Below are positions 1,415-2,411 of a stretch of DNA of 5,604 bases, piece by piece. The translations under genes were made by a program, and so were the position numbers. Below the pieces are notes generated by a model. The model did not search any database. It was not told the origin of the DNA and was given only the letters and a program-made list of their open reading frames with translations. Source of the DNA: a virus (Duplodnaviria > Heunggongvirae > Uroviricota > Caudoviricetes); the IMG/VR virus record IMGVR_UViG_2675903289_000011; one strand, written 5' to 3'. The first letter of the stretch is position 1. Each line of letters begins with the position of its first letter.

Positions 1415-2411
1415 TTATACCTGCGATACGTTATACCATGTTCCGTTAATTAACTTTTGTATTGGTCTGAATACTGCCGGATCATCACCATCGACTTCAC
1501 CGATAATACCAAGCCCCGTGATTACATGGCCTGATTTTTCATACATCACGCCTTTCTTCATGGTCTAAACAACTCGTGTGCCAAGTCTGACATCTCTCAC
1601 ATAGCGGGAATCAAAGTTACCGTAATCCGAGGGATTAACACGTCCCGTAATATTTATGGTTTTATTACTTTGAATGCTTCCGGAGACAAAGCGCATAACA
1701 TGGACGTTATTAGCATAAACATCCAGATTACCATCGCCTTTTTGTTTAAAGCCCGTGTCATTATCACCCAATACAATCGAATTACCGCCAAGAGCACTGG
1801 ATGTTCCGATACCCAGTGCACCATTCAGTTGACCACCAGATAACGGCAGTGCACCAACATCTCCTGCTGAAGGTTTTCTGGTGGTGTAAAATTCGGACCA
1901 GTCGGCTTCAAAACCATAACCATCACGGGCTGAACGATAAAAAATACCGCCATTTTTATAATTAATCCGAAACTGAGCTGCAGGACAACTTCCTTCTCCC
2001 ATATAAAAATGAATAATTAACGTTGATGCACCACTANNNNNNNNNNNNNNNNNNNNNNNNNNNNNNNNNNNNNNNNNNNNNNNNNNNNNNNNNNNNNNNN
2101 NNNNNNNNNNNNNNNNNNNNNNNNNNNNNNNNNNNNNNNNNNNNNNNNNNNNNNNNNNNNNNNNNNNNNNNNNNNNNNNNNNNNNNNNNNNNNNNNNNNN
2201 NNNNNNNNNNNNNNNNNNNNNNNNNNNNNNNNNNNNNNNNNNNNNNNNNNNNNNNNNNNNNNNNNNNNNNNNNNNNNNNNNNNNNNNNNNNNNNNNNNNN
2301 NNNNNNNNNNNNNNNNNNNNNNNNNNNNNNNNNNNNNNNNNNNNNNNNNNNNNNNNNNNNNNNNNNNNNNNNNNNNNNNNNNNNNNNNNNNNNNNNNACC
2401 GAGGTTTTAGA
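1415..2411 (-). pseudogene. Alternative tail fibre variable C-terminal region (Mu S'v-like), interrupted by an in-frame TAG at 1565-1567; interior N-masked (2037-2397)
   Basis: The visible translation (1568-2036) is fibre-like: ...LGDNDTGFKQKGDGNLDVYANN...NPSDYGNFDSRYVRDVRLGTRVV*. After the TAG the same frame continues [49 protein letters not shown] to TAA at 1415-1417, collinear with the + strand fibre C-terminus. The 5' end is placed at the crossover site by inference. Confidence 0.6.
2037..2397. other. Run of N (masked or undetermined sequence, 361 nt)
   Basis: Literal n characters; content unknown. Falls inside the minus-strand tail fibre variable region and covers the left half of the putative crossover site. 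Confidence 0.99.

Follow-up and report, generated by a model that had tools for sequence, protein, structure and literature searches.

The amber codon at positions 1565–1567 of the window, by which we mean the whole 5,604-nucleotide stretch of DNA analysed here, is very probably a nonsense mutation fixed in the Shigella sonnei lineage, where the prophage that carries it is decaying, and as such a case of ordinary gene decay that calls for no new mechanism. The window is the right end of a lambdoid prophage, now defective, that lies at the trp/ompW locus in S. sonnei. The side tail fibre gene (stf) of this prophage ends in a Mu-type invertible G segment with two C-terminal cassettes, and each cassette has a Tfa chaperone gene of its own. 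Gix-like crossover sites lie on either side of the segment, and a gin remnant comes next. Five codons into the tip module of the minus-strand cassette, a single C-to-T transition turned a glutamine codon (CAG) into the amber codon. The kind of lesion is already known, and the two pieces that it leaves already stand as separate coding sequences (CDSs) in public annotations.

The amber codon and its reading frame

Positions 1565–1567 of the plus strand read cta, which is TAG (amber) on the minus strand. Translation of the minus strand over positions 1412–2035 gave 49 sense codons past this TAG and then a TAA at 1415–1417, and the ATG of a tfa gene (1412) follows 2 nt further on. Reading and translating the window thus bore out two claims of the original prediction, namely that an amber codon lies in the frame of the minus-strand fibre, and that the frame continues past it to a stop adjoining the start of the downstream tfa gene.

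The visible upstream part of the silent fibre cassette (1568–2036, minus strand) is Mu S′-like and runs on into a masked stretch. The orphaned 3′-end of the fibre gene (1415–1564, minus strand; 49 sense codons and TAA) encodes the distal tip, which begins with T followed by MKKGVMYEK, and gene callers annotate it as a 48-aa ORF with its ATG at 1561. Directly downstream of the fibre, the TAG cassette has its cognate Tfa gene (879–1412, minus strand, ATG 1412; Pfam Caudo_TAP, E = 4.8e-34). The minus-strand fibre also carries an in-frame 3-nt deletion at window position 1887 relative to its E. coli relatives (YTTTRKPS to YTTRKPS).

Fibre relatives and the ancestral codon

A megablast search of window positions 1–2035 against 5426 complete E. 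coli genomes found this fibre type in six of them, with 93% identity over positions 298–2035. The same six genomes were recovered with a 61-nt query centred on the codon; each was one or two bases off (98.4% and 96.7% identity), and none of the six was identical. In NCTC86 and OZ040035, the two relatives that were aligned in full, the codon is CAG and the ORF runs unbroken to the same TAA; the fibre of OZ040035 is a single 2805-nt stf gene. The original prediction had proposed an alignment with orthologous fibre genes as the way to learn which sense codon is ancestral at this site, and that alignment gave CAG (Gln). On the coding strand, the base at window position 1567 is T here and C in the relatives, and the event is evidently a C-to-T transition at this base that changed CAG (Gln) to TAG.

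The 150 nt past the codon are identical to those of NCTC86 and differ from those of OZ040035 by one synonymous base. The alignment with the Mu tail fibre protein S (PDB 5YVQ) starts before the stop and covers residues 424–502 of 504 (E = 4.5e-16). Because these 150 nt match E. coli and Mu S aligns across the stop, the in-frame continuation represents real homology and not chance. The TAG is accordingly a nonsense mutation of a sense codon, as had been predicted, with CAG in the E. coli relatives and homology that stays in frame beyond the stop. Its suggested recency also agrees with the data, in that the region downstream of the TAG has not decayed (0–1 difference in 150 nt) and the mutation therefore looks recent.

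At the protein level, the tip module RLGTRVVQTM(K/Q)(K/R)GVMYEK...NGTWYNV(S/A)QV forms the end of E. coli proteins of 148, 413, 431, 439 and 1401 residues, and every one of these has Q at the position of the stop. Further upstream, residues 2–63 of the visible cassette match residues 355–417 of the Mu S/S′ chimera 8JU3 (E = 6e-30), and an E-value of 4.7e-38 was also obtained against 8JU3. The Pfam family gp37_C matches the upstream cassette part above its cutoff, and a match of Phage_fiber_C at residues 150–204 stays below its own.

We compared five tips: those of the TAG cassette, the plus-strand cassette, the ST131/NCTC86 type, Mu S, and the E. albertii type. All of them share one continuous layout, in which VRD(V/I)RLG(S/T) is followed by about 50–58 residues and then by RP(I/V)QK.I.G.WYNV. 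The predicted collinearity of the orphaned tail with the end of the plus-strand fibre was confirmed in this comparison, since both have VRD(V/I)RLG, about 50 residues, and then a matching end motif. The predicted loss of the conserved extreme C-terminus likewise holds, as the Mu S alignment spans the stop and reaches residue 502 of 504; the 49 lost residues correspond to the last ~50 residues of Mu S, its extreme distal end.

The open frame through the tip is broken in the window copy and continuous in all of the non-sonnei relatives compared. Since the TAG breaks a frame that is continuous in the relatives, the window copy is, judged from its sequence, a pseudogene of the Mu S / P2 H / lambda Stf-type tail fibre family.

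Nucleotide homology between different fibre types (ST131 and the second cassette of NCTC86) ends at about position 1581, which is 14 nt before the TAG is reached. The conserved VRDVRLG motif appears to be the point at which tip-plus-tfa modules are exchanged; fibre backbones of 413 aa and 1401 aa carry this same tip. The TAG lies five codons into this exchangeable tip-plus-tfa module, so essentially all of the specificity-determining tip is lost.

A natural two-gene layout, in which the fibre would end at RLGTRVV and a separate 48-aa protein translated from ATG 1561 would supply the tip, is extremely unlikely. An ATG does lie two codons past the TAG, and the 48-aa ORF is annotated by gene callers; that methionine, however, is internal in the continuous E. 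coli fibres (QTMKKG/QTMQKG), and the 20 nt before ATG 1561 (GCACACGAGTTGTTTAGACC) contain neither GGAG nor AGGA, i.e., no Shine-Dalgarno sequence. Among the matches listed, the standalone short forms that carry no flag are all named S. sonnei, and the E. coli forms of 45, 46 and 62 aa are each labelled “partial.” Mu S and four other tips run continuously through this point. The original prediction had named a natural fibre end with a separately translated small protein as an outcome that would overturn it; instead, every non-sonnei relative has one continuous ORF.

Distribution of the allele in Shigella sonnei

Window positions 1–2036 are 100% identical to four S. sonnei loci, and positions 3627–5604 are 99.7–99.8% identical to those same loci, which identifies the window as S. 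sonnei DNA. The TAG is present in all 10 of the S. sonnei loci fetched (L006–L015), which come from complete or near-complete chromosomes and include that of the lineage II strain 53G (L009; HE616528.1); L011 and L012 are the two ends of one contig. Across the assembly collection, 2201 blocks list the 48-aa ORF, which starts two codons past the TAG, as a called gene. The 203-aa and the 48-aa fragments each have an exact counterpart among the annotated proteins of S. sonnei and occur on at least 1000 contigs apiece; the 203-aa fragment is Q3Z104_SHISS of strain Ss046.

Strain 53G belongs to lineage II and Ss046 to lineage III. As the TAG allele is present in both, it is evidently older than the split of these two S. 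sonnei lineages. A search with the codon context and NNN in place of the codon gave no matches among the GTDB species representatives, which carry no such tip and so give no information on the spread of the allele. The question of whether related strains carry the same TAG, raised in the original prediction, is answered by its presence in 10/10 S. sonnei loci, together with a stop that is not conserved outside S. sonnei.

A sequencing or assembly error over a true CAG, also considered in the original prediction, has a negligible probability. It would fit a single-base difference from the E. coli relatives, but the same TAG recurs in 10 S. sonnei loci obtained with different technologies, finished genomes included, and each of the two split ORFs, which are annotated in both Ss046 and 53G, is present on at least 1000 contigs.

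The 203-aa and 48-aa “tail protein” CDSs of S. sonnei are two pieces of one pseudogene and deserve to be annotated as such. More generally, suppression or recoding should be invoked for an in-frame stop of a phage fibre cassette only after comparison with orthologues and across the population.

A Mu-type invertible segment on a lambdoid tail module

The order of the locus was derived from synteny with annotated E. coli and S. sonnei genomes, in which it lies beside trpA at a split ompW. It begins with J, lom, and the N-terminal domain of stf, followed by tip A with tfaA and, on the opposite strand, tfaB with tip B. Beyond this block come a crossover site, a 60-codon recombinase remnant, a tfa fragment and a SAM methyltransferase gene, and further on a second tfa fragment, a DUF4376 fragment with an internal stop, Rha, and ash.

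Of the crossover sites, the window shows only the one on the recombinase side (2398 onward), while loci L009 and L013 keep both sites. The outer part of this gix-like site (ACCGAGGTTTTAGATAATGG...) occupies positions 2398–2423, next to where the gin remnant would lie under the mask, and the 52-nt island at 2398–2449 is identical to the site region of L001–L003 and L006–L015. In L009, the two inverted 30-nt sites lie at 7209–7238 and 10129–10158. L013 has the same outer half-sites as L009, with the inner halves exchanged and the 2.9-kb block between them inverted; it is this swap of the inner half-sites, together with the inverted block, that identifies the rearrangement as site-specific inversion.

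The crossover sites are nearly identical to the gix sites of Mu (TTCCTGTAAACCGAGGTTTTAGATAATGG vs. Mu TTCCTGTAAACCGAGGTTTTGGATAATGG), a comparison that was made directly against the Mu genome (L017; Mu positions 1467 and 4526). The recombinase remnant comprises 60 codons of a Resolvase N-terminus, of which 57/60 are identical to the N-terminus of Mu Gin, and ends in a stop. No functional serine invertase gene was found adjacent to the segment: all of the relatives have the 60-codon remnant, and the corresponding position is masked in the window. Since the sites match gix, the remnant matches Gin, and the cassette matches the Mu S/S′ chimera, the whole can be recognised as a G segment of the Mu type that has been joined to the side-fibre gene of a lambdoid J-lom-stf tail module.

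Both orientations of the segment are seen in related strains (L009 vs. L013 and L011 vs. L012), with the exchange at the site cores. 53G (L009), L011 and L014 have the TAG cassette OFF and the other tip ON as part of a 918-aa Stf. The reverse holds for L012 and L013, where the TAG cassette is switched ON and gives an 875-aa protein ending in RLGTRVV; that protein is found on 72 contigs. The original prediction of an alternative fibre in the non-expressed cassette of an invertible segment was therefore right in kind, given both orientations in the relatives.

L011 and L012 come from the two ends, which overlap, of a single untrimmed NCTC PacBio contig (UGZB01000001.1; offset 4,933,332 nt), and their sole difference is the orientation of the segment at 7209–10158 (locus coordinates). 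This suggests that both orientations coexisted in the sequenced NCTC culture and that inversion may be ongoing. It also suggests that an invertase encoded elsewhere in the genome may flip the S. sonnei segment. The wider interest of the locus lies only in this continued G-type inversion in S. sonnei without a functional adjacent invertase.

Such inversion bears on whether the truncation could have been selected, with an ON-form short Stf that would benefit the host, for example by altering the adsorption of other phages. We consider this very unlikely. The TAG allele is found in all of the S. sonnei assemblies examined, as selection would have it, but fixation is to be expected anyway in a young clonal species that is accumulating pseudogenes, as S. 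sonnei is known to be, and in a large sublineage of the species IS600 has wrecked the system. Also on the side of selection, the segment goes on flipping in S. sonnei even though its own recombinase gene is a remnant, and in E. coli K-12 a host phenotype results when a remote invertase inverts the fibre segment of a cryptic prophage (PMC12529663). By analogy with StfE2 and PinQ of e14, we see a similarly slight chance that, in the strains with two sites, a remote invertase flips the segment so that cells would alternate between a 918-aa and an amber-truncated 875-aa Stf, which would alter their phage susceptibility, with the truncated allele being functional and retained. Gene decay remains the preferred reading of the TAG allele.

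The plus-strand cassette and the IS600 junction

The first 32 nt of the window (1–32) are the terminal nucleotides of a copy of IS600 (IS3 family) that interrupts the plus-strand fibre cassette. They match only those S. sonnei loci that have the insertion sequence at this spot (L006–L008, L010, and L015); loci with an intact fibre match the window only from position 33 onward, which places the IS600 junction at 32/33. The element at the junction is annotated in E. coli genomes as an IS3-like IS600 family transposase. What is left of the other fibre cassette is a remnant of its last 96 codons (33–321, plus strand), identical to the end of the 918-aa Stf of L009, and the Tfa gene cognate to the plus-strand tip follows (323–850, plus strand; Pfam Caudo_TAP, E = 7.9e-37). 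A 104-aa ORF from the GTG at position 7 starts inside the end of IS600 and is an artefact of the junction.

In the IS600 loci, J, lom, the N-terminal part of stf, and the second crossover site are no longer adjacent to the cassette. The sequence beyond IS600 varies between these S. sonnei strains (L006–L008, L010, and L015), which suggests IS-mediated rearrangement at this locus. L007, whose sequence equals that of window positions 1–2036, lacks the second crossover site; the window, for its part, ends 32 nt inside the insertion sequence. As this site is gone, no inverted orientation can form in the window-identical loci. If the left flank of the window's strain resembles that of the IS600 loci, the TAG cassette would be permanently silent, because it would have no fibre N-terminus to join.

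Proposed history and effect of the truncation

The mutation arose before the split of S. sonnei lineages II and III and was retained thereafter. J, whose lesion was located at 12816–15994 in L009 and at 1100–4551 in L013, is frameshifted at residue 627/628 in 4/4 of the S. sonnei loci tested, which are all those that keep J, and it matches the intact 1158-aa J of E. coli in two frames. With J frameshifted, no tail tip can be made by the prophage. In lambdoid phages the side tail fibres are accessory parts, and even viable lambda can do without them. We infer that the TAG was retained because nothing selects for the fibre, as the prophage cannot make a tail without an intact J and side fibres are dispensable in any case. 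The 150 nt past the TAG show only 0–1 difference from E. coli, which speaks against this reading insofar as long-term neutrality is no more than compatible with the young age of S. sonnei.

Where the segment still flips, the ON orientation would yield an 875-aa Stf that lacks its last 49 residues. The inversion of the segment in some strains and the 72 contigs with the ON form indicate that the truncated product could be made. A passage of PMC9608196 that cites the 5YVQ study states that Mu Tfa remains bound to the fibre distally and makes certain that the fibre trimerises and assembles correctly. Most likely, a fibre ending in RLGTRVV would be unable to fold or trimerise with its Tfa, or to bind a receptor. 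In loci identical to the window, IS600 has also destroyed the other cassette, and the second crossover site is gone; if the window's strain is alike, its TAG cassette would be a permanently silent pseudogene fragment.

The amber codon might instead mark a conditional gene, in which a suppressor tRNA or leaky termination would give full-length fibre at a low or regulated level and a glnV-type suppressor would restore the ancestral Gln. The ancestral residue is indeed the one that a supE-type suppressor inserts, namely glutamine, and the 49 codons past the TAG and the tfa gene are undamaged. Several observations nevertheless make this very improbable. No tRNA gene was found in the window or in the 16-kb loci L009 and L013, and L007 holds only two tRNA-Arg genes, so the rescue by host amber suppression that the original prediction had envisaged gains no support from these sequences. 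The fibre is a trimer, and rare read-through would seldom give three full-length chains. Moreover, J of the prophage is frameshifted, the window-identical loci give the cassette no N-terminal part to join, and the stop is not conserved among homologues outside S. sonnei. A nonsense mutation in a decaying prophage accounts for the TAG without any such rescue.

Comparison with known systems

The feature derives from the G-segment system of Mu (gin, S/U and S′/U′), which likewise has two inverted C-terminal cassettes, each with a Tfa gene. It now has neither a functional adjacent invertase, as seen in the relatives, nor an open frame in the window copy. The Mu segment belongs to a myovirus, whereas the segment described here sits on a lambdoid J-lom-stf tail module; its gin is cut to 60 codons, one of its cassettes has an amber codon, and in the closest matches of the window the other cassette and the second gix site have been lost to IS600.

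Hendrix and Duda (1992) reportedly traced the lack of side tail fibres in laboratory lambda to a frameshift in stf of lambda PaPa. That would likewise be a single tolerated inactivating lesion in the accessory side tail fibre gene of a lambdoid phage. The lesion of lambda PaPa, however, is a frameshift in a viable phage; the prophage described here already has a broken J, and its lesion is a nonsense codon in one of two alternative cassettes.

The P segment of the E. coli K-12 element e14 (stfP/stfE, PinE) is inverted also by PinQ from another prophage, and the chimeric StfE2 of e14 alters the adsorption of other phages (PMC12529663). As in e14, the fibre segment of a cryptic prophage still inverts in S. 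sonnei, although the S. sonnei segment has only a gin remnant beside it and the repeats of e14 differ in sequence from the S. sonnei crossover sites.

Tominaga et al. (1991) are said to have described the B segment of Shigella boydii with pinB and related Shigella pin genes. This is likewise an invertible fibre segment in a Shigella chromosome that resembles the G segment of Mu. The pinB gene of S. boydii is active and adjacent, whereas the segment described here has a 60-codon recombinase remnant, and its host is S. sonnei.

Other lesions and the masked stretch

Further lesions in the prophage include the gin remnant, insertions of IS600 and IS1, and fragments of tfa and of a DUF4376 gene. 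The last two lie downstream of the methyltransferase gene. The Tfa gene fragment (4398–4574, plus strand) comprises the C-terminal part only and was placed by offset from the RefSeq annotation of L003 at 99.5% identity. The DUF4376 fragment with its internal stop (4671–4949, plus strand; “internal stop; incomplete”) was placed by offset from the same annotation. A stem-loop-like sequence follows the tfa stop (4590–4650) and recurs, in diverged form, at 2891–2950.

Window positions 2037–3626 are masked, and the gin remnant and the rest of the upstream cassette were placed there from the relatives. The closest S. sonnei loci have 795 nt here, exactly half of the masked 1590 nt, and the first mask by itself exceeds the corresponding length in the relatives by 65 nt. 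This points either to an insertion in the source strain or to a mask that did not keep the original length. The relatives lack the 60-nt island of 2891–2950 at this place; its sequence has a 100% match next to ipaH3 in four E. coli genomes, of which two were inspected.
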